A program made the position numbers and the translations under genes. A model generated the notes under the pieces. The model was given only the letters and a program-made list of their open reading frames with translations, had not been told where the DNA came from and did no database searches. 64,000 bases of DNA from the IMG/VR virus record IMGVR_UViG_3300037721_000031, positions 160,001 through 224,000 of that record, one strand, 5' to 3'. Each line of letters opens with the position of its first letter. Position 1 is the stretch's first letter. This document shows, one piece after another, positions 394-17,926 of this stretch. Source of the DNA: a virus. Lineage: Duplodnaviria; Caudoviricetes.

Positions 394-485
394 TGGCGGA
401 TATGGTAGGATTCGAACCTACGGAACCCATTGCTGGGTTCGACGGTTTAGCAAACCGTTGCGTTAAGCCTCTTTGCCACATATCC
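394..485 (-). tRNA. tRNA-Ser(GCT)
   Basis: Cloverleaf; anticodon arm ACGGT-TTGCTAA-ACCGT; long variable arm; GGTTCGAATCC T-arm; encoded CCA. Confidence 0.95.
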
Positions 486-489
486 AATT

Positions 490-576
490 TGGCTCCACAG
501 GCTGGATTCGAACCAGCAAGACCTTTCGGAAGACGCGTTAACAGCGCGTTGCAGTACCAGTTATGCTTACTGTGGA
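490..576 (-). tRNA. tRNA-Asn(GTT) with extended variable arm
   Basis: Acceptor TCCACAG/CTGTGGA, G73, CCA; anticodon arm ACGCG-CTGTTAA-CGCGT; 15-nt variable region. Confidence 0.9.
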
Positions 577-581
577 ATTGT

Positions 582-1094
582 TCAAATCAAATTATAAGAC
601 TTAACCCATTTACGGACTGCATTATCCGATACACCATACTTCTCACCAAGCTTGACCATTGAAGTGGTTTCAATTTCTAGTGCTAAGACTTCTTTCGAAG
701 GACGTTCGGCTTTCCGACGACCAAAGTCTTGACATGGTCGAGAACAGTACTTCTCTGTATGATCAACCGGCTTATCACATGTTGCGCAACGAATACAACC
801 TAGTGCTTTTCTCTCAGCATATTCGGGCTTTGGAGTGATTATATTTTTGCTGAGCCACGTATGCAGCTTCGCATGCATCGGTCCAGAAAGAACTAGGAGA
901 TTATCTGGAGAATTATTTGTTTTATTCTCATCGAGGTGATGAACTTCTTCACCTTCTTTAAAAGGTCTGTCAAGTAACTCTTCAGCGATCAGTCGATGTT
1001 CGTACTGATAATCTTCGACAGATGCAGTTTCCAATTTTTCAGGATCAACTACAGCCACATAACCATTTTTGATTATTCTTTGTTTCTTAGCCAT
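582..1094 (-). CDS. HNH homing endonuclease with Zn-ribbon and C-terminal HTH
   Basis: YEHR...VHHLDENKTNNSPDNL HNH motif, CxxC pairs; start moved to MAKKQ because the longer ORF runs through two tRNA genes. Confidence 0.9.
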   Translation of the reverse strand: MAKKQRIIKNGYVAVVDPEKLETASVEDYQYEHRLIAEELLDRPFKEGEEVHHLDENKTNNSPDNLLVLSGPMHAKLHTWLSKNIITPKPEYAERKALGCIRCATCDKPVDHTEKYCSRPCQDFGRRKAERPSKEVLALEIETTSMVKLGEKYGVSDNAVRKWVKSYNLI

Positions 1095-1114
1095 AAAATT
1101 TTCGACCTTCTTAT

Positions 1115-1190
1115 TGGTCCGCCCGGAGGGATTCAAACCCCCGACCCGCTGAGTAGAAATCAGCTGCTCTACCAACTGAGCTACCGGGGA
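1115..1190 (-). pseudogene. Degenerate tRNA (anticodon TCT) on an Asn/Lys-type body
   Basis: D and T arms recognisable, but the acceptor has two mismatches, T-loop TTTGAAT and anticodon loop TTTCTAC. Confidence 0.7.
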
Positions 1191-1217
1191 ATAATTCGTT
1201 GTTATCAATATAACAAT

Positions 1218-1294
1218 TGGTTTCTCGACTTGGGCTCGAACCAAGGACCTACAGCTTAGAAGGCTGTTGCTCTATCCAACTGAGCTATCGAGAA
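1218..1294 (-). tRNA. tRNA-Arg(TCT)
   Basis: Acceptor TTCTCGA/TCGAGAA; anticodon arm ACAGC-CTTCTAA-GCTGT; CCA. Confidence 0.95.
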
Positions 1295-1674
1295 ATGTTC
1301 GTCATCTTCTTAATAGCTTTAAGAAGAAGTTTTAAATAGGGTGTTTCAATAGATATATTTGGCTTTGAGAACATTACTTGACCATCTGGAAAATCAAGTC
1401 GTAGCTCTGGTCTGTAGATTACCTGAATGAAACCAAGATCACTACATTTAGATTGTCCTCCTCTTTTGAAGAACTTTCTATAGTCAGATAATCTATTCCA
1501 TCCAAATACGAAATTGGCTATTTTAAGTGCCTCAAGTACTTCATCAGGAAGACTCATCGCCTTCGCCATTTTATCTGGATCATAATGCGGTGTTAGGTAA
1601 CGGACACATACTTGGTCACCATGAAAAGGTCCATTACCTTTCTCATCTTCAAGACGATATACTTTTCTAGGCAT
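1285..1674 (-). CDS. Hypothetical phage protein (VYRLE..G.GP N-terminus)
   Basis: Likely start MPRKV follows the upstream stop; its own stop lies inside tRNA-Arg. Confidence 0.7.
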   Translation of the reverse strand: MPRKVYRLEDEKGNGPFHGDQVCVRYLTPHYDPDKMAKAMSLPDEVLEALKIANFVFGWNRLSDYRKFFKRGGQSKCSDLGFIQVIYRPELRLDFPDGQVMFSKPNISIETPYLKLLLKAIKKMTNISR

Positions 1675-1676
1675 GA

Positions 1677-2108
1677 TTAACAGTATGTCTGTACGCCAGC
1701 AACTAAAATTACTTGTTTCCCGTATACTGCAGTACTGTGCCAACCTAAACGTTTGGCTATTGCTGCAAACATGTAGGTATCAAGGTACTTGCTTGTTATG
1801 TCTGGGGATTGAGTGTGACGCAAGAAATACGCGATCTCGTCGTCCCAGTTATTAGTGATGTTAGTATCGAGACGGTCCTCCCGAGCACAACTCACTGAAA
1901 AAGATTTTATTTGAGACATCAGTGTATTAATAACATTCGGCTGAATGATCACTGAAGGCTGATTTGGTGTTCTATCGTTAGGATCTGGAAACTCGAATCC
2001 GCAAGCTGATACATTACGAGCTGCTCTTAGAAAATAGGCGATAAACGCACCAGTTTCTGGATGATAGAAGTCATCGACATTGCTATTACCGTCTTTACTG
2101 TTCATCAA
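1677..2108 (-). CDS. Hypothetical protein
   Basis: 143-aa codirectional ORF. Confidence 0.65.
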   Translation of the reverse strand: MMNSKDGNSNVDDFYHPETGAFIAYFLRAARNVSACGFEFPDPNDRTPNQPSVIIQPNVINTLMSQIKSFSVSCAREDRLDTNITNNWDDEIAYFLRHTQSPDITSKYLDTYMFAAIAKRLGWHSTAVYGKQVILVAGVQTYC

Positions 2109-2256
2109 ATTACTCCATATTGCTCTAAGTCATATCACTGCTTTAGAGCGGGCTGAGAAAAAAAGAAAACACAACACATTGTGAATACATGAGATTTTGG
2201 CCTCATGTATTCATTACATGCATCTATTTAAGTGCATGTAAAGGTTTAACAAATAA

Positions 2257-2343
2257 TGGTGCCCGGAACCGGGATCGAACCGGTATGACCGTAAGGTCGA
2301 GGGATTTTAAGTCCCTTGCGTCTACCTATTTCGCCACCCGGGC
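2257..2343 (-). tRNA. tRNA-Leu(TAA)
   Basis: Anticodon arm AGGGA-CTTAAAA-TCCCT, long variable arm, CCA; no intron. Confidence 0.95.
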
Positions 2344-2384
2344 ATTCTGAAATCAATTTAACAAATTATGCAACTGTCTCAATA

Positions 2385-2460
2385 TGGTGCCCCCGGTCTG
2401 AATCGAACAGACGACCTTCCGCTTACAAAGCGGGTGCTCTACCAACTGAGCTACGAGGGC
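2385..2460 (-). tRNA. tRNA-Thr(TGT)
   Basis: Canonical cloverleaf; loop TTTGTAA; CCA. Confidence 0.95.
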
Positions 2461-2482
2461 ATTTATTATACCATACTTAAAC

Positions 2483-2806
2483 TGGAACCGATCGCCTGAA
2501 TCGAACAGACTTCTATCACCTAACGTTTATCCCAACTGTTAACTGTGTAACTCACTGCTTCTGCGTCATTGGACTGCCTGTGCTATCTCTTAGCACAGGC
2601 TTCTCTTAGAGAATTTATCCAATTGTCTAGATAGCGGAGATTACTACATTACCAGCATCAATACCCATAGACGTTTATTCACATCCGAAGATGAACGTTC
2701 AGCCAGGGCGGGCTAGGACTAGCTAAATGCTATCTGCTCCTAAGTGGGCAGACTCCTATTGATCAGACTACATACAGTGATTGCTCTACCAATGAGCTAG
2801 ATCGGC
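2483..2806 (-). ncRNA. tRNA-scaffolded RNA with 257-nt insert replacing the anticodon loop
   Basis: Acceptor GCCGATC/GATCGGT, D-arm GCTC-ATTGGTA-GAGC, stem ATCAC/GTGAT, T-arm GTCTG-TTCGATT-CAGGC, CCA; insert 2520-2776 is hairpin-rich. Confidence 0.85.
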
Positions 2807-2830
2807 TTACTACTTTCAAACAACCGTTAC

Positions 2831-3794
2831 CGTACCACTATAGTTTTCACTACCGAGGATGACTTTTCTCAAATGCGACTACAGTCATCTTGGCTGTGCT
2901 AGCCATTTCTTTGGAGACTTCAACGATCTTCTATTAGGAAGACCTCCATCTATATAAATCCAAATACTCTCGTTTGTGGTCTGGACTATGCCTTCATCCA
3001 TTGTTACTCGGCGGCAATCATATCGGCATTGTCACTCCATTTTACTGGGGATATTTCCAATATAGCTATCCACCCTAGACAAAGCACATGTTGTTCATTC
3101 CAACAACACCCGCTCTTTAAGCCTACACTTGGATGATCTCCATCTAGTCTCTACACCTTCAAGAATAATCTACGTACCTTCACAGGTATGTGTATATCAT
3201 TACTAATTCAGATACTAAAGATACCGAGAGTCGAACTCGGACCATTCCACAGCGGAGTCTACCGCTTGACCTATATCTCTAGTACAGTGCTGTGTTCACC
3301 TTCTGAATTAATACATTCAATACATCAATAGCCGGAGGAGCCCTACTCCATGGACGAATCATAGGTTTCGAAGCTACTATCGTCTGTTTATTGTCATACC
3401 TGCCGGCATGACTCAACACTCTACGTTCTTTTAATCGCTACTGAAAAATTACTCAAGCTTGGCTCGGCGTTGACATGGTAAACTTATTACATAAATGGAT
3501 CATCACTTTTGGATGTTTCCATTTTGTTAGGTCCAAGTCTACTTTAGTGTTCGCCGAATTTGAAGATATTCACCTAACAGGGTATAGGATTCTCACCTAG
3601 TACGCTTAGAGTTTGACCTCAATCGTTTCCTGCTATTTTACCGTCTCTCGATTGCATCGTTTCGTACATAGCTTCTTTTTGAAGGAAGCTACATATATCC
3701 CCAACGCATTTTTCGGTGGTGCTCATGTTTCTGCTGGATAGTCATGACTCGTGCTCACATAAGTATTCGCGAATCACTAATACCCATTCAGCAT
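2831..3794 (-). ncRNA. Group I intron (IB-like, ORF-less, large peripheral inserts)
   Basis: P4 UCGGCG/CGCCGA, P3 AUCUUCA/UGGAGAU, P7 GACUA/UAGUC, P8 CAUCCA/UGGAUG, P9.0 ACCAC/GUGGU, terminal G at 2831; core is clear, 5' splice site is inferred. Confidence 0.85.
3215..3282 (-). ncRNA. tRNA-like domain embedded in intron L6
   Basis: 9-bp acceptor-like helix, U8-A9, D-arm GGTC-AAGCGGTA-GACT, perfect T-arm CCGAG-TTCGACT-CTCGG, stunted anticodon arm. Confidence 0.75.
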
Positions 3795-3818
3795 AAGACG
3801 GTTATTTTACTAACTAAA

Positions 3819-4217
3819 CTAGATGGACATTATGAGTACATGTCCATCATCACCAACAATCATGTCTTCAACTTCTTCATGGTCGAAAGGAATGTCTCTG
3901 TAGCGCTCTCGAGCTTCAGCATGTTCCGCTCCACCATTTACTTTCTCTTGTTTTCGTCTCAGAGCTCTGGCTTCATAAGCATGCAAAGCTTGCTTTAAAT
4001 GCCAAATCGCATCTTTAGTTTCGTCACACGGAATCAATCCATCAAGGTAGACAGACCTATCCAAGAGTGCTCGAATGACTTCCTGAGTATTTGTTCCTTG
4101 GTATTCGACATCATGCCTCACATGCCGGCTACTTCTTTTACAGAATTTCAATTCCTGATGACCTGGTGTCCCAAGATTATCAAGATGGTAAATGTGACCT
4201 GCATCAATTATTTTCAT
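3819..4217 (-). CDS. Tad1-like (Tad1/Acb2 fold) anti-defence sponge candidate
   Basis: H.Y...KF.K...G....E...L.DR......P..E...A..H...AL......R...V.G pattern matches Tad1 as I recall it. Confidence 0.65.
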   Translation of the reverse strand: MKIIDAGHIYHLDNLGTPGHQELKFCKRSSRHVRHDVEYQGTNTQEVIRALLDRSVYLDGLIPCDETKDAIWHLKQALHAYEARALRRKQEKVNGGAEHAEARERYRDIPFDHEEVEDMIVGDDGHVLIMSI

Positions 4218-4234
4218 TCAATTTCTCATTAATA

Positions 4235-4490
4235 GCTTGACTCCCTATAGTCCACCAGCCGCATCTTATCCGGGTAATGGACTATAGGTTGCCCTCGTTA
4301 GACTCGTCAGTCTACAGAGAAACAGCTTCCACTCAAAATGGCTGGCAACCAAATCAAGTGACGTACAGTTTAGAAAGTGCCAACTCTCCACTTTAGATGG
4401 TTTTTGCCATCGCTTCCTCCCAGAGCCACGAGTGTCACTGTTAGTCCTCGCAGCTTGGATCATTTATACGAGTATTCCTACTCGTTTCGC
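4235..4490 (-). ncRNA. Putative structured ncRNA or 5' leader
   Basis: Several nested helices, incl. CCTATAGTCCA/TGGACTATAGG, GGTTGCC/GGCAACC, GTGAC/GTCAC, TAGACT/AGTCTA. Confidence 0.55.
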
Positions 4491-4525
4491 TCATTTATTT
4501 TTAAACCGTTGAGCTCATCAGTAAG

Positions 4526-4852
4526 TTACGGTTTCGGATGCTTTACAGCTTCCTCATATAGCTTTGCACTCTTATCAAAAAGCCAAGCAGCTTGATGAAA
4601 TCGGTGTGCTGCTTCATTAACAAGATCCTGAGCTTCCTTTGTGGACTTGTCAATTCCCTTAAGAGAAGTCATTATCTTGTCGGCTTTCTCCTTATTTTCT
4701 TTTGCCAAAGCATATGCTTGGTCAGCTTCTTCAAGGTGATTCCTGTCGTCGTTCATTTCCTGAACTTGCGAGTCTGTGTAATCTTGCTGCATTTGAGGTT
4801 CTGTTATAGTCGTGTATACATTAGTGAGGACCTTTGCATTAGGCATCTTCAT
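4526..4852 (-). CDS. Hypothetical coiled-coil protein
   Basis: 108-aa codirectional ORF, helical and charged. Confidence 0.7.
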   Translation of the reverse strand: MKMPNAKVLTNVYTTITEPQMQQDYTDSQVQEMNDDRNHLEEADQAYALAKENKEKADKIMTSLKGIDKSTKEAQDLVNEAAHRFHQAAWLFDKSAKLYEEAVKHPKP

Positions 4853-4925
4853 ACTTAATCCAGATTGAATGTTTGAATAAGAAAAGAGAATAAGTGTTGA
4901 TGTGATCTCTACTTATTCTATAAAC

Positions 4926-5004
4926 TGGTAGGCCGGGTGAGATTCGAACTCACTATCGCTGGCTTATGAGGCCAGTGCTTATACCAGGCTTATGCTTCCG
5001 GCCC
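4926..5004 (-). tRNA. tRNA(CAT), Met or Ile2
   Basis: Anticodon arm CTGGC-CTCATAA-GCCAG; acceptor GGGCCGG/CCGGCCT with C4-G69 and C5-G68 favours Ile2; atypical A8 and D-arm. Confidence 0.85.
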
Positions 5005-5400
5005 ATTTTTATTTCTATCTCTACTGTATTGTTTCATCCAGACACTCTTTGCTTCTTTGCAAAGGTCACATTTACAGTAGCGATATTCTGTAAGAGTCCC
5101 GTGTTTTGGAATTCTTTTGCTTCTGAACAACTCGTCTGCTTTTTCTCTATTTTGTGGTTTTGTCAGAATCTGCAGATTGTTAATATCGTCGTTTGTTTTA
5201 TCATCGTCTTTGTGATCGACTTCAAGACCATCTGGTACGATATATCCGAGTTTAACAGACATCAAATAACGAGCATATGAAATTGTTGTACTGGTTTCCC
5301 CAGTATTGTAGAGAATAACATTTCTTCTATTCTCTGGGTTTACAACAATGTACCCACATTTCCATTTCTCCTTGAATGGAGATTCTAGTTCTATTTTCAT
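4990..5400 (-). CDS. HNH homing endonuclease
   Basis: VDHKDDDKTNDDINNLQIL motif; stop codon lies inside tRNA(CAT). Confidence 0.9.
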   Translation of the reverse strand: MKIELESPFKEKWKCGYIVVNPENRRNVILYNTGETSTTISYARYLMSVKLGYIVPDGLEVDHKDDDKTNDDINNLQILTKPQNREKADELFRSKRIPKHGTLTEYRYCKCDLCKEAKSVWMKQYSRDRNKNGPEA

Positions 5401-5415
5401 GTTCTTTTTTTTTTT

Positions 5416-5449
5416 AAGCCGCTGCTCTAACCATCTGAGCTAACGGCCC
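5416..5449 (-). pseudogene. 5' half of a tRNA gene, broken at the anticodon loop
   Basis: GGGCCGT-TA-GCTC-AGATGGTTA-GAGC-A-GCGGC-TT, then an A11 run and the HNH start. Confidence 0.85.
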
Positions 5450-5455
5450 TAGAAA

Positions 5456-5716
5456 CTATTGCGGAATCACTACTGTGAAGTTTTCACCACAGTATCCACC
5501 TATCAAATGCTTTCCTTTGGAGCGACCAAATCCAGGGTCGGTTCCTTTACAATAATCCTTGTAACTTCCCTTGTACAACGTCATCGTGTTATCACCACCA
5601 TAGTCTGGATCGGACCACACAAAGTTACCAAGAGCTGTTTCAATGAAGAAGTGCATTCCCCACATGTAGGTGAAGTCACCGACTGCGTTAGCAATTGCTT
5701 CTTTACTAATAGCCAT
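5456..5716 (-). CDS. Hypothetical phage protein
   Basis: 86-aa ORF with SD GGAG. Confidence 0.75.
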   Translation of the reverse strand: MAISKEAIANAVGDFTYMWGMHFFIETALGNFVWSDPDYGGDNTMTLYKGSYKDYCKGTDPGFGRSKGKHLIGGYCGENFTVVIPQ

Positions 5717-5735
5717 GTTGATCTCCTAAAGTTTG

Positions 5736-5825
5736 TGGAGGAAGTGGTGAGATTCGAACTCACGGAGCCATCTCTGACCCAACAGTTTTCAAGACTGTCT
5801 CATTAAACCACTCTGACACACTTCC
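5736..5825 (-). tRNA. tRNA-Ser(TGA)
   Basis: Anticodon arm ACAGT-CTTGAAA-ACTGT, long variable arm, CCA. Confidence 0.95.
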
Positions 5826-13059: not shown

Positions 13060-13842
13060 TTACTTTCTGTATCGGAGAATGATGTCTTTAACAATTGCAT
13101 TCCTGACTATTTCGTCTTCATCAAACTCACAGACACAATAGTCTTGCATTCCACGCAATCTCTCCAACATATCCACTAGGCCAGATGTTTCAGTTATGTC
13201 TATCTGTCCAATATCACCGTCCACAACTACAGTGCAGTCGTTACCTATACGGGTCAAGAAGGTCAGCATTTCCTTATTAGTAGTGTTTTGTGCTTCATCC
13301 AGAATCACAAAAGCATTCTCAAATGTACTACCGCGGAGATATTCCAGAGGAGCTATTTCAATCTGTCCGTTTTTAATCATGTTCTCTACATGACTGACAC
13401 CCAGACGCTTCTCAAGAATTACACGAACTGGCTTAAAGTACGGAGCCCACTTATCTTCGATCTCACCAGGCAAGAAACCCAGACCTCTACCTGATTCAAC
13501 AGCTGGCCTACAGATAATGATTTTAGATATCTTCTTTTCCATTAACAGCATTGACGCTGTAGTTACAGCTATGTGCGTTTTACCGGTACCAGGGGGACCT
13601 ATACCTATTGTTAAGGTATGTGACAGAATCATCTGGTGATATGTTTTTTGCTTCGGGGTCTTGTACTGAATTGGTCCTGTCTGTATGCTCTCATTGCGCA
13701 ATGAAGCGATATATGAGTGTGACTGCTGATTACCTATACCTGAGACAATGTTTCTTCCTTCACGCTTTGCTGATCGCTGTTCGCGACGCTCTGCTCTTGT
13801 GATGACACTGGAAGACCGTTTACCCCGTTGGAACTTTGCCAT
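13060..13842 (-). CDS. phoH: PhoH-like ATPase
   Basis: GPPGTGKT, RPAVESG..LGFLPG, LRGSTF, ILDEAQN motifs; start set at MAKFQ. Confidence 0.95.
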   Translation of the reverse strand: MAKFQRGKRSSSVITRAERREQRSAKREGRNIVSGIGNQQSHSYIASLRNESIQTGPIQYKTPKQKTYHQMILSHTLTIGIGPPGTGKTHIAVTTASMLLMEKKISKIIICRPAVESGRGLGFLPGEIEDKWAPYFKPVRVILEKRLGVSHVENMIKNGQIEIAPLEYLRGSTFENAFVILDEAQNTTNKEMLTFLTRIGNDCTVVVDGDIGQIDITETSGLVDMLERLRGMQDYCVCEFDEDEIVRNAIVKDIILRYRK

Positions 13843-14059
13843 AGAATGATACTTTCTATAAAGACTACCGCGATGCAAAATGAGATCCGAACCCACTCAT
13901 TCACAGTATCTATGCAACCGTTTTATCTTAATAAAAAGTACTTAATTCTATGATCCGACGCGATTATGAATTTGGTATCTTTATCTTATTTAGTAAAAAA
14001 TATTCTTTAAAATAGACTTTAATAGCCAGGGTAGTTTCCCTGGCTATTATGCCGTAATA

Positions 14060-14428
14060 TCAAACGGATAGCTCGCCATAGTCATTATAAACATCACAGA
14101 TCTTCATGATACTGAGCTTTGTAGCGTCACATGCTAGAAGTGAACTAGCGTTACATGACTGAATGAGATTTGTAGCATTGGATACAGCACGGTGTTCGAT
14201 AAGCTTAATAAATCTATCTTTACTAAGCCTAGCTTCTTCCAATGTTACTTTTATTGCAACACTCAGCTTACTTGTCTTACTGAGAGTTGGTTTGAATGGA
14301 ACAATACTGTTAGTCACTAACTCTAGATCAACTAAGTACAAGTGTCCAACGACATTAGATTTGTCAAGACCGAGAAACCTCTTAAACAAAGTAAGTTTCT
14401 TTGAAAAATAATTTAGAACAGTATTCAC
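14060..14428 (-). CDS. Hypothetical protein
   Basis: Codirectional ORF. Confidence 0.65.
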   Translation of the reverse strand: MNTVLNYFSKKLTLFKRFLGLDKSNVVGHLYLVDLELVTNSIVPFKPTLSKTSKLSVAIKVTLEEARLSKDRFIKLIEHRAVSNATNLIQSCNASSLLACDATKLSIMKICDVYNDYGELSV

Positions 14429-15048
14429 AATCCTACCCTTCCAAGTAAAGTCTTATATTCTCGTGCAATTACTGGATAACACATCGTCAGTTCTACGGTC
14501 TGTAGACCATTTGACATTTTAATCTTGAAACTTGAGTTTTCTGTCTTAACATCATCAAGTCTAATCATCAAAGTTCGATACTGATAGACCTCAGCGTAAA
14601 CGCTAATAAAGTATAAAAGGAACGAAGCAAGCGATGACAACTTTTCATCTTCTTGAATCCACTGCTTGTAGTACTGTTCTGCAGCGTATATTGAATTCTC
14701 AGGAGTAGGCTCCCTTTTCAATACATTTTCCTTTTCTCTTTCTGTAGCGGAGTAAATACGCAGTGATCCAAACTCAGGCATTCTGATCTGATCATCAGTG
14801 CGTCTAAGTAGGTTAAGATGATTATCTAGCATCTTAACTACAAAACCACTATCATCACTCGTGTAACTATACGCAATTACAGAACAACCAATAGGTCCAT
14901 TCATGTCTGCCAAAGTATCAATATAGTCAAGAAGTGCTTCTCTGTGCTGCAGAGAAAATTGTTGATTATTAATAGACAAAAACTTGTTGATATACTCATT
15001 TCGACAGTCTTCGATTGAGCTACCGACATTACCGTTATTGATACTCAT
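14425..15048 (-). CDS. Hypothetical protein
   Basis: 207-aa codirectional ORF. Confidence 0.7.
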   Translation of the reverse strand: MSINNGNVGSSIEDCRNEYINKFLSINNQQFSLQHREALLDYIDTLADMNGPIGCSVIAYSYTSDDSGFVVKMLDNHLNLLRRTDDQIRMPEFGSLRIYSATEREKENVLKREPTPENSIYAAEQYYKQWIQEDEKLSSLASFLLYFISVYAEVYQYRTLMIRLDDVKTENSSFKIKMSNGLQTVELTMCYPVIAREYKTLLGRVGL

Positions 15049-15072
15049 GGTTTACCTTGAATGGTTACCGAA

Positions 15073-15999
15073 TTAATTACTAAGTTGATTGATGAAGGTT
15101 CCACACGAAGCGTATACATCGCGACCAACGCGGGGTACAACCTTTGAACCAGAAAGCTTCATAGCAGAGCTTAGTTGCTCGAACCGCTCCTGTACTACCT
15201 CTTCAGCAGGCTCCCGCCCCTGAGCAGGACTGTAGGGGTTATAGCGTACTAAATTAAAGCGGGTGCTTAGACCTGACTTATTAACAAGATCGATAATCTT
15301 ATCAACATCTTCCTTACTATCATTCTGACCTTCAATGAAAGCCCAATGAAGAACTACTGCGTCATCAATGCCGTAGTTATCAAGACAGAAATCTTGATAA
15401 CTCTTAAGATGTTTCATAGCCTCTTTAGGAGCCATTGCTTTTGGCAGCCACCTCTTACGGAAATTTTCATCTGTACTGTATAGAGAGTAATAAATAGTAG
15501 GTAGCGATGGCTGTGTTGAAAACACCTTGAAGCCATTAAGAGGATTCTGAACATCAGGCATGATGGTAGAGATTTTGAACTTCGATTCATAAACTCCTAC
15601 ATTGTGCGCATGAAATCCGCACAATGCATCAATATATTTCCATGATGAAATCAAGTGAGGATTCAAAAGAGGTTCACCACGAGCCATCCAGTTGAAGTGT
15701 ACCTTTTTCAGCACTGGAATCTTATCGTTACCGAGTAGGCTCATGTAATGATCCGTGACATACTTCATCTGTATCTCATACTCATCCACTGTGGCTGGAG
15801 TCATATCGGTTTGTTTAGTTTGCGTCAGATGACAGAACCTACACGCTTGGTCGCAACCTCTATGAGAAGACAGATACACGATAAAGTAATCCGTACCAGG
15901 ACGGTGAACAAATCGAGCTTCAAGACCGTTAGGAAACACGAAATTAACACTAGCATCCAGGACGCTGTGTAAAATCTTAGGAGCAGTGACTAAATCCAT
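15073..15999 (-). CDS. RlmN/Cfr-like radical SAM enzyme
   Basis: SSHRGCDQACRFC (Cx3Cx2C), MARGEPLLN, NLVRYNP, GRDVYASCG. Confidence 0.85.
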   Translation of the reverse strand: MDLVTAPKILHSVLDASVNFVFPNGLEARFVHRPGTDYFIVYLSSHRGCDQACRFCHLTQTKQTDMTPATVDEYEIQMKYVTDHYMSLLGNDKIPVLKKVHFNWMARGEPLLNPHLISSWKYIDALCGFHAHNVGVYESKFKISTIMPDVQNPLNGFKVFSTQPSLPTIYYSLYSTDENFRKRWLPKAMAPKEAMKHLKSYQDFCLDNYGIDDAVVLHWAFIEGQNDSKEDVDKIIDLVNKSGLSTRFNLVRYNPYSPAQGREPAEEVVQERFEQLSSAMKLSGSKVVPRVGRDVYASCGTFINQLSN

Positions 16000-16056
16000 A
16001 ATAACGTAACCCTTGAATGCAGTGTGGATAATTAGAAATTGAAGACTTTATTCTTG

Positions 16057-16761
16057 TTATGAGTTAACTGAATTCTTCTTCTTATACTCAGGATCAGTGA
16101 AGTTTATTTTCTTTAGAACTCGATTCATTCGCTCAGTAATATCCTTCTTAGTAGGATTTACAGTTACAAATAACTCATTCGTAACTCTGCTGTATGTACT
16201 GTACGAATTCGAACTACTTGAATCAAGGCCCGCTGCAAAGTAGAATACGTCTACAAAGCTTAACTCTGACGTATTAATTCTATCTTTAAGGATATTGAAT
16301 ATAGCATTACCGCTACCAAACACGACACTACTATTACCATCTAAACAATGTTTAGTTTTTATTAAATATGTACGGGTTGTCGTTCCACCAATACCGCTTA
16401 CTGTAATACCATTATGTTTAACATCACCAGATACAATAACGCATTCTCCATCTTCTAACAGACAGACAATTTCGTAATCTGATTGATGATTACGATGAAC
16501 AGGCATTCCGTTTAATATTTTTGTAAGTGTTTCGAGTTCAAAGCCTGCAAGATCTGAATGACTCATTAATGATTTTACATAGCTACTCGAACTAACATCA
16601 CCACAAGCAGCCATAGCAACTATTCGTTTACCTTTGTGAACGACAGTGCAGTCTGTCTCTATTTTGCATTTATTATCAAAATAGGTCTTCTCATTATGCC
16701 GGAGACTAGTAACTCTACAATCAGTAATCATGAAATCACGCGTTACCAAAATAGTAGTCAT
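16057..16761 (-). CDS. Ntn-hydrolase / HslV-proteasome-beta-like peptidase
   Basis: N-terminal MTTI...TD.R.T and an internal GSG motif. Confidence 0.5.
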   Translation of the reverse strand: MTTILVTRDFMITDCRVTSLRHNEKTYFDNKCKIETDCTVVHKGKRIVAMAACGDVSSSSYVKSLMSHSDLAGFELETLTKILNGMPVHRNHQSDYEIVCLLEDGECVIVSGDVKHNGITVSGIGGTTTRTYLIKTKHCLDGNSSVVFGSGNAIFNILKDRINTSELSFVDVFYFAAGLDSSSSNSYSTYSRVTNELFVTVNPTKKDITERMNRVLKKINFTDPEYKKKNSVNS

Positions 16762-17243
16762 ACTCGCACTTTACTAGTAGAGATATCGTTAACAACCCAC
16801 TTACAGTTATTCTTCTCGTAGTTACCGTCAGTCTGTATTCTCTTCAGAATAGATTTACCTGGAGGCTTAGGACCCATGTCAGTTAGAAAATTCTGAAATG
16901 AGCTTAACCAACGATCACAAACCTCAATACCCTTTGCACCATAACACTTGTAGTTCGTAGAATTCTTATTGGTACAACGTTGAATTATTATAGACCACGC
17001 CATGTACGTCTTTGTATATGACATATCGTGGATGGTGTTAACTTTAATAGCTTGTTCTTTTCTATAACATCCACAACTAGTTGTACTTCCTCTAATAAGG
17101 TTACTGCCCGCTACAGTAACTTTGTTTCCACATTTACAGAGACAGTCCCAATGAATTGATCTACTCTTAGTTTTTACAGTGTTTTTATTTTGAACTGTTA
17201 GCTTTCCGAATATCTTATTTGTTAATTCTAAAGCTTTAGTCAT
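16758..17243 (-). CDS. Putative homing endonuclease (Cys-rich N-terminus, HNH-like)
   Basis: FGKLTV...W.C.C.CG...SCGC; YGAKGIEVCDRW; shorter paralogue of 37709 and 60151. Confidence 0.7.
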   Translation of the reverse strand: MTKALELTNKIFGKLTVQNKNTVKTKSRSIHWDCLCKCGNKVTVAGSNLIRGSTTSCGCYRKEQAIKVNTIHDMSYTKTYMAWSIIIQRCTNKNSTNYKCYGAKGIEVCDRWLSSFQNFLTDMGPKPPGKSILKRIQTDGNYEKNNCKWVVNDISTSKVRV

Positions 17244-17269
17244 TTCATACTCTTAAGTTTAAATGTTTG

Positions 17270-17926
17270 TCACTTATAAGCTATTAATAAATTTTTATAA
17301 GTGTAGAACAGATGTTTGTTGATTCTTTTAACCATTGCAAATACTCTAGACCAACGTGGCCTGACGTATACTGCATGATAAAATAAACTATTAGAGACAG
17401 GGTTATTAGACTTACCTGTCAATATTTCTAAAGCTAATTCCGTAGCTTTCAAATACGAATCTTGATCTGTAACAACATCTGGTAGGCCATCGCAGTACCA
17501 TGTGAATTGACATTTATACCTAACGGGTTTTCCCTTTACATGTTTTCCCTGCTTTACAACACCGCAGATAGTTTTTGGAAAACGATCATCGGCCACTCTA
17601 TTCAATACAACATACCCTACGGCTAGCATGCCCTCATCACCCTCTCCACGGGCTTCAAAATACATCACCTCTGTCATGCAAGCCAATTCTTTATAATCCA
17701 ACTGCAGGCTATTAATGAAAGATGATTGATTAAATAATGAAAGGATCCTACGCTTCTCATCAGAATCAGGTATATCAACTGTGGATTCAATAGCATTGTC
17801 ATTTTGGATAATGTCTGCTACGGGTGACACTACATTCAAAACTGTTCCACTATCTTCAACGTGCTTCGTTGTAGTGCATGCTGTGAATAATAGTTGCATT
17901 AATAGTAACCAGAAATATTTCTTCAT
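17270..17926 (-). CDS. SleB-family cell wall hydrolase, lipoprotein-like signal
   Basis: YFEARGE...AVGYVVLNRV.D.RFPKTICGVV.Q....CQFTW; LFTAC lipobox-like. Confidence 0.9.
   Translation of the reverse strand: MKKYFWLLLMQLLFTACTTTKHVEDSGTVLNVVSPVADIIQNDNAIESTVDIPDSDEKRRILSLFNQSSFINSLQLDYKELACMTEVMYFEARGEGDEGMLAVGYVVLNRVADDRFPKTICGVVKQGKHVKGKPVRYKCQFTWYCDGLPDVVTDQDSYLKATELALEILTGKSNNPVSNSLFYHAVYVRPRWSRVFAMVKRINKHLFYTYKNLLIAYK

Follow-up and report, generated by a model that had tools for sequence, protein, structure and literature searches.

Can a radical SAM enzyme built like RlmN and Cfr work when the cysteine that resolves its covalent adduct is replaced, and what would it then do? The question is raised by an open reading frame at positions 15073-15999 (-) of the window analysed here, a stretch of 64,000 nucleotides that represents positions 160001-224000 of a 266,566-bp virus record, 98% complete, from a jumbo phage. 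Methylation via a protein-bound methylene radical has its textbook example in RlmN and Cfr, whose second cysteine is regarded as indispensable. A first SAM methylates C355 and a second yields a 5'-dA radical, leading to a Cys-S-CH2 radical that attacks C2 or C8 of adenine; resolution of the covalent adduct then requires C118 (C105 in Cfr), and M176 adjoins the resulting thiyl radical (PMC9692996). RlmN and Cfr mutants that lack the resolving cysteine remain cross-linked to RNA (PMC9692996; structures 5HR6 and 5HR7). The initial annotation of this locus gave the RlmN facts correctly, with one point to update: C118 is now seen mainly as a general base, removing a ring proton and so triggering fragmentation and release (PMC9692996).

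The gene and its predicted fold

The ORF is confirmed as a real gene. It encodes 308 aa from an ATG start, with a weak Shine-Dalgarno sequence (AAGGG) ~10 nt 5' of the ATG and at most 16 further in-frame codons open 5' of the start. It belongs to a run of closely spaced, co-directional genes (13060-17926), one of which encodes a PhoH-like ATPase, and a terminator-like hairpin with a 12-bp stem (14020..14049, -) closes this block. Apart from PhoH, its neighbours in the window gave no Pfam or PADLOC match; these include the two ORFs upstream (16057-16761, - and 16758-17243, -), the second of which is Cys-rich. PADLOC assigned neither the radical SAM enzyme nor its neighbours to a defence system. 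Eight tRNA genes were identified in the phage, seven of them 9-15 kb from the gene. Those seven form a cluster at 394-5825 (-) with two tandem copies of tRNA-Arg(UCU), and the eighth, Val-UAC, lies beyond the window at genome position 226664. The phage genome encodes neither a CCA-adding enzyme nor AbiEii, and an adjacent DUF1814/AbiEii nucleotidyltransferase was found neither in the window nor in the whole 266-kb genome. Megablast of the region against phage records gave zero matches, and no close cultured relative of the phage was found. The PhoH-like ATPase gene (13060-13896, -) is within 1-5 kb of the radical SAM gene, as it is in at least three other distinct contigs (L019/L051:3885-4658, L078:3324-4343 and L081:3238-4299); PhoH is common in phages, and the proximity may be due to chance.

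Domain models recognize the protein only faintly. Pfam gave a sub-threshold radical SAM domain and nothing else, so that RlmN_N (PF21016) is without a match. NCBIfam gave weak matches to the RlmN, Cfr and PRK14464 models (E 1e-9 to 1e-11), with scores of 35.0 and 35.4 bits against curated cutoffs of 290 (TIGR00048) and 550 (TIGR04432). The one full-length match was to PHROG 27142, a group labelled Fe-S-cluster redox domain-containing (E 2.3e-95, residues 11-303 on profile positions 10-299 of 300). A profile of the family searched against all PDB sequences retrieved only Cfr (9e-15), RlmN (1e-10) and 6FZ6 (1e-8), and hhalign matched this profile to E. coli RlmN with 97.8% probability.

An AlphaFold2 model built on 116 homologues reached a pLDDT of 91.8; the last ~20 residues, which carry C299, average only ~57, as expected of a loop predicted to be mobile. 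Foldseek placed the model with RlmN-type structures (E 5e-14, TM 0.72). Its best match was 6FZ6 (E 5e-14), a probable RlmN of Sphaerobacter thermophilus deposited as an RlmN homologue, which resembles the model in fold (Z 26.7) while its profile E-value is only 1e-8. With VIA-align, residues 1-307 of the model align over 278 residues to RlmN 76-363 in tRNA-bound 5HR7 (Z 27.6). RlmN chains score 24.6-27.6 and Cfr, in its apo structure, 18.4; the next family, PFL-AE, scores 15.8, and spore photoproduct lyase (SPL) 13.2, a generic radical SAM level. As modelled, the 308-aa protein has an RlmN-type fold and is nearer to RlmN than to other radical SAM families.

The resolving position and the active site

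Pairing of the protein with E. coli RlmN by hhalign is in agreement with the structural alignment, and both uphold the residue readings of the initial annotation. The radical SAM [4Fe-4S] cluster ligands of the CX3CX2C motif (15832..15855, -) are kept, C49/C53/C56 pairing with C125/C129/C132, as is the C-terminal cysteine of ASCG (15100..15111, -), C299, which pairs with the methyl-carrier C355 and sits in the low-confidence, mobile tail. The C118 position does read IVYLSS, and MGMGEP does read MARGEP. The first of these motifs is strand beta1 (15865..15882, -), in which Y42 (15874-15876) occupies the column of RlmN C118 and Cfr C105. The second belongs to strand beta2 (HFNWMARGEP, 15670..15699, -), where M105 pairs with M176, R107, a residue peculiar to the Tyr family, with M178, and G108-E109, of the SAM-binding GGE-type motif, with G179-E180; A106-R107 replace Gly-Met. 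E27 pairs with E105. In the model, the barrel strand that carries Y42 (38-44) is next to the one with M105/R107 (99-107).

Compared with E. coli RlmN (3RFA, 5HR7), the protein thus shares the core fold, the beta extension that precedes it, the CX3CX2C and GGE-type motifs, and the equivalents of E105, M176 and C355, at ~17-19% identity. It differs in having Tyr for C118 and Arg for M178 and in lacking the first ~75 residues (RlmN_N). Three further motifs are also changed. YYSLYS (15475..15492, -) is the family version of the RlmN ISLHAP strand, with SLY for SLH and an invariant Y174 in place of His; FRKRWLP (15442..15462, -) is an invariant basic motif at the place of IRDEIVP; and NLVRYNP (15235..15255, -) stands for NLIPWNP, with VRYNP for IPWNP and an invariant R252 in place of Pro. 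A Glu of RlmN is replaced by H218.

These replacements are properties of a family. Homologues were gathered by a word-indexed search (2,408 clusters at E<=1e-3) and by an exhaustive profile search (421 clusters at the 50% identity level at E<=1e-30). In an alignment of 267, each of the 263 sequences that span the column has Tyr42, as do 119/119 close members, a constancy far greater than chance would give; C299 is likewise invariant (265/265), and both hhalign and HMMER align it with the methyl carrier. A total of 41 columns are invariant among 116 members with 45-80% identity to the query, which carries all 41. They include E27, C49/C53/C56, M105, G108 and C299, and the invariant motifs are HFNWMARGEP, YSLYS, FRxRWLP, H218, ND, NLVRYNP and RVGxDVxASCG. 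The query has every feature by which we define the Tyr family: Y42, MARGEP, YSLYS, FRxRWxP, NxVRYNP, ASCG and no N-terminal domain. Invariance of 41 columns at such divergence points to purifying selection on a complete catalytic set, and the pattern reads as the signature of an active rather than a decaying enzyme. Tyr42 is, on this alignment evidence, a fixed trait of a large family and no lesion.

Another cysteine in the resolving role would have offered a simple way out, and the initial annotation had named it, along with formation of normal m2A, as the finding that would overturn its view. The only conserved Cys columns in the family are the three cluster ligands and C299; C127 and C205 of the query are not conserved. 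No alternative resolving Cys is therefore left, and the view stands against this objection.

The pocket around the substrate base appears to be rebuilt. In a model of Cfr with rRNA, D150, S151, S153 and M155 are among the residues within 5 A of A2503 (preprint 10.1101/2025.09.18.677109), and these correspond to V100, H101, N103 and M105 of the conserved HFNWM region. Cfr (9P0P), a C8 methylase of A2503, has the same two-SAM methyl-Cys scaffold and gives the best sequence-profile match (9e-15); it keeps C105 and the N-terminal domain, unlike the Tyr family, which has V/H/N for its D150/S151/S153. The RlmN and Cfr equivalents of Y42 and M105/R107 line the adenine pocket. Five invariant arginines (R29, R33, R107, R183 and R252) are new to the family. 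On residue correspondence, the substrate pocket of the Tyr family is different from that of RlmN, and the new arginines together with the remodelled base pocket make a polyanionic substrate likely, one that differs from the RlmN site.

Relatives, distribution and gene neighbourhoods

Two distant homologues from phages lie on the route to the Tyr family. Tunturiibacter phage Tunturi_5 gp170 keeps the cysteine (ILCLPTQ) and reads MGVGEP. Klebsiella phage 05F01 gene_104 (L115:4992-5921) has Val in the C118 column and a Cys three residues later (SLVLSCSHGC), with LGEGEP; it is flanked by an ADP-ribosyltransferase gene and by anaerobic ribonucleotide reductase genes. A search seeded with the Tunturi_5 protein recovered 118 clusters (P0268-P0385) that form a short, Cys-retaining group. 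Like the query, these proteins are N-domain-less (41 residues ahead of the C118 column in both, versus 117 in E. coli), have CH[LT]T after the cluster motif and a C-terminal SCGMF, and are mostly encoded on phage-like contigs. They differ in keeping Cys118 (107/113) and MG[C/V/A/S]GEP, contain the C355 equivalent, and are ~25% identical to the query. MGCGEP, found in 64/118 members, places an extra Cys in the M178 column, which is Arg in the Tyr family.

A FastTree phylogeny with canonical RlmN as root, which left out L117 and L122 and is read for topology only, places all Tyr-type sequences in one clade. Its deepest lineages are viral, and beneath it diverge first Tunturi_5 and next 05F01. 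By sequence, the Tyr family is distinct, a sister to the class A methylases RlmN and Cfr. Because the Cys-retaining short group is already N-domain-less, loss of the N-terminal domain came first, with Cys to Tyr and Gly-Met to Ala-Arg afterwards. Neither mixed form, Cys with MARGEP or Tyr with MGxGEP, occurs in the Tunturi_5-type group, which indicates that Tyr42 and Ala106-Arg107 changed together, as one unit.

The family is for the most part carried by phages, and the annotated ones are all large. Matches were identified in 23 annotated phage records; apart from Klebsiella phage 05F01 (147 kb), these are jumbo phages >200 kb (22 records). They include Caulobacter phages CcrColossus and CcrPW, Brevundimonas phages, and Pseudomonas phages 201phi2-1, Phabio, Psa21, D6 and RVTF4, with homologues 41-48% identical to the query among those listed. 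IMG/VR added 34 loci, many on contigs of 100-620 kb, and the nearest ESM Atlas clusters are ~75% viral. To call this a phage enzyme, as the initial annotation did, is nevertheless too narrow, as 75 species-representative bacterial genomes carry the gene. Complete chromosomes with the gene come from Pirellulaceae, Rubripirellula and Polyangiales, and other bacterial carriers are ~1-Mb Pseudomonas megaplasmids, Nocardia, Achromobacter, Acetobacter and CPR bins. All five carrier genomes tested also encode a canonical RlmN above the curated cutoff, so the Tyr-type protein is an extra enzyme and no substitute for RlmN. Some carrier genomes encode a third RlmN-like paralogue that scores ~220 bits against TIGR00048, below the cutoff (L123, G002:C1:4532361-4533170; and G004:C4:63017-63817); L123 keeps the Cys and reads MGMGE. 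Given this third paralogue, RlmN-like paralogy is richer than the RlmN/Cfr pair.

Genomic context differs between phages and bacteria. In annotated phages the flanking genes are hypothetical, and a Pfam tally of 97 non-redundant viral neighbours contains no recurrent family; its singletons include RtcB, dCTP and dCMP deaminases, Nmad5 and RNase T. No fused longer forms of the Tyr family were found, a blank that is weak evidence for the search used, and the N-terminal extensions of longer members contain no Pfam domain. In one 491-aa member (P0071) an HNH endonuclease domain (PF01844/PF14279) is inserted, probably through a homing endonuclease or a fusion. With no fusions and no recurrent phage neighbour, a standalone enzyme fits a ubiquitous substrate.

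In bacteria, the sole recurrent family in the Pfam flank tally is an LRR protein of one clade, and Rfam detected nothing upstream of the bacterial copies. At ~36 loci in Planctomycetota, Myxococcota and related bins (e.g., L069:7135-8025, - and L057:7151-8062, -, with ~34 further loci), the radical SAM gene is divergently paired, across ~100 bp, with a gene for an AbiEii/DUF1814 nucleotidyltransferase (NTase) of 270-300 aa (Pfam 65-91 bits versus a cutoff of 22.5). Next in order after the NTase gene come those for the LRR (LRR_6) protein and a sulfotransferase, and in many cases one for a sulfatase. No AbiEi-type antitoxin gene was found upstream of the paired NTase, an unusual setting for a toxin-family NTase. 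On the FastTree topology, the paired radical SAM copies group in a single derived clade whose sister is the set of 201phi2-1-type phage genes, from which it appears that the link arose once; the pairing is absent from every viral locus examined. The MenT1-4 toxins, which are DUF1814 enzymes, act on tRNA acceptor ends, either extending or blocking them (PMC7450476, PMC10435456, PMC11375011), and AbiEii, from the same superfamily, is a growth-blocking NTase toxin (preprint 10.64898/2026.01.19.700257). The pairing is only a hint of tRNA and translation conflicts. The sulfatase and sulfotransferase genes near the Planctomycetota and Myxococcota copies also led us to consider a role as a sulfatase maturase. 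This role was discarded on three grounds: the two genes come only after those for the NTase and the LRR protein, the family is without auxiliary-cluster cysteines, and phages carry the radical SAM gene without any sulfatase.

Possible reactions and substrates

Of the three options raised initially, new chemistry and a different substrate, singly or combined, are those favoured by the family-wide swap, the coupled Arg, the remodelled pocket, the missing N-terminal domain and the co-carriage of RlmN. Compared with RlmN and Cfr, the Tyr family probably has another way of working or another target. Our preferred reading, to which we give a probability of roughly 0.5, is an active standalone class-A-type methylase variant with Tyr42 as the resolving base and a nucleic acid or nucleotide as substrate. 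The enzyme would methylate its own C299 using one SAM, and a second SAM would produce a Cys-S-CH2 radical at C299 that adds to an sp2 carbon of a nucleobase. Tyr42 would then take the role of C118, removing the proton and triggering release, probably after activation by the neighbouring Arg107 on beta2. Arg107 could lower the pKa of the Tyr or bind a substrate phosphate. Tyr42 may also quench the C299 thiyl radical, much as in the Cys-Tyr relay of SPL. Candidate substrates are RNA (tRNA or rRNA), a nucleotide, or DNA.

A tyrosine can in principle fill the general-base role of C118. Every member retains the SAM-binding elements, the equivalent of M176 and the loop that bears the methyl carrier, and this is read most simply as methyl-Cys radical chemistry kept intact, with Tyr42 as the base. 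Several points count against it. A Tyr that resolves a class A adduct would be without known precedent, and its greater bulk than Cys means that the geometry of the substrate must differ. The scores are 35 bits against cutoffs of 290 and 550, RlmN_N is missing, and the NTase link is limited to one clade. The other pocket changes (Y174, H218 and R252) would equally fit a change of reaction type.

Such a change defines the best-surviving alternative, which we consider doubtful: the same scaffold used for other chemistry, with C299 and Tyr42 relaying a hydrogen atom or an electron and no methyl transfer. A nucleic acid or nucleotide would then undergo radical rearrangement, repair, lyase chemistry or cross-linking. 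The analogue would be SPL, a radical SAM enzyme that acts on nucleic acid through an active-site Cys and a Tyr radical relay. Replacement of C118 by Tyr, M178 by Arg, SLH by SLY, Glu by H218 and Pro by R252 all changed together, and the positions that in Cfr lie near the base are taken by family-specific invariant residues, as a new reaction would lead one to expect. SPL-family clusters are also among the Atlas feature neighbours of the protein, at scores of only 0.85-0.86, which is a lead only. The likeness to SPL is one of working principle alone: SPL has no methyl-carrier loop, and its Z of 13.2 is generic. Against it, two features particular to the methyl-carrier mechanism, the ASCG loop and the counterpart of M176, are invariant here, all significant sequence relatives are class A methylases, and no positive evidence points to any particular reaction.

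A suicide protein that traps RNA, stuck covalently to its target like RlmN C118A and thereby inhibiting host RNA, was the third option raised initially, and we judge it the least likely of the three and improbable in its own right. It would follow directly from the cross-linking of RlmN and Cfr mutants that lack the resolving Cys, and a toxin-type NTase does adjoin the gene in one bacterial clade. However, mere loss of the Cys would tolerate many residues, whereas an invariant Tyr with a coupled invariant Arg suggests a new catalytic residue, and the full catalytic apparatus is conserved across hundreds of phage and bacterial lineages. The gene is stable in bacterial chromosomes, no conserved immunity-type partner was found beside it outside the one clade, PADLOC gave no match, and a stoichiometric trap of tRNA or rRNA would harm the phage's own translation too. 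An ordinary RlmN or Cfr orthologue that makes m2A or m8A at A2503 or A37, with some other residue or Cys compensating, is very improbable despite the RlmN-like fold and the automatic naming of relatives as 23S rRNA (adenine2503-C2)-methyltransferase, given the lack of any other conserved Cys, a score of 35 bits against a 290-bit cutoff, the absence of RlmN_N, the genuine RlmN kept in carrier genomes, and a clade of its own, parted from canonical RlmNs by the Cys-retaining short group.

The database label 23S rRNA m2A2503 methyltransferase is very likely wrong for the Tyr family. Public annotations name its members RlmN, Cfr-family or Fe-S redox domain proteins, and in the literature searched, whose coverage excludes many subscription journals, we found no description of a Tyr-for-Cys family or its function. 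Through this family, jumbo phages, megaplasmids and several bacterial phyla probably make a nucleic-acid modification that has gone unrecognised. With Tyr and a coupled Arg in every member, the family also offers nature's own experiment on how covalent enzyme-substrate adducts can be resolved.

A broader proposal, possible but tentative, is that Tyr-type enzymes carry out a reaction that RlmN and Cfr do not, a new C-methylation or other radical modification on a different target at a Cys/Tyr(-Arg) site, and that they are a phage-spread tool in conflicts over tRNA and translation. In Planctomycetota and Myxococcota they would act beside an AbiEii/MenT-type NTase of tRNA ends; in jumbo phages they would act alone, possibly marking or protecting RNAs. 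A Bacillota cluster of 491-aa proteins in the ESM Atlas joins a CDA/TadA-type deaminase (PF00383 + PF14437) to a query-like fold (TM 0.85 over 290 residues), a model-based lead that may point to RNA or nucleotides.
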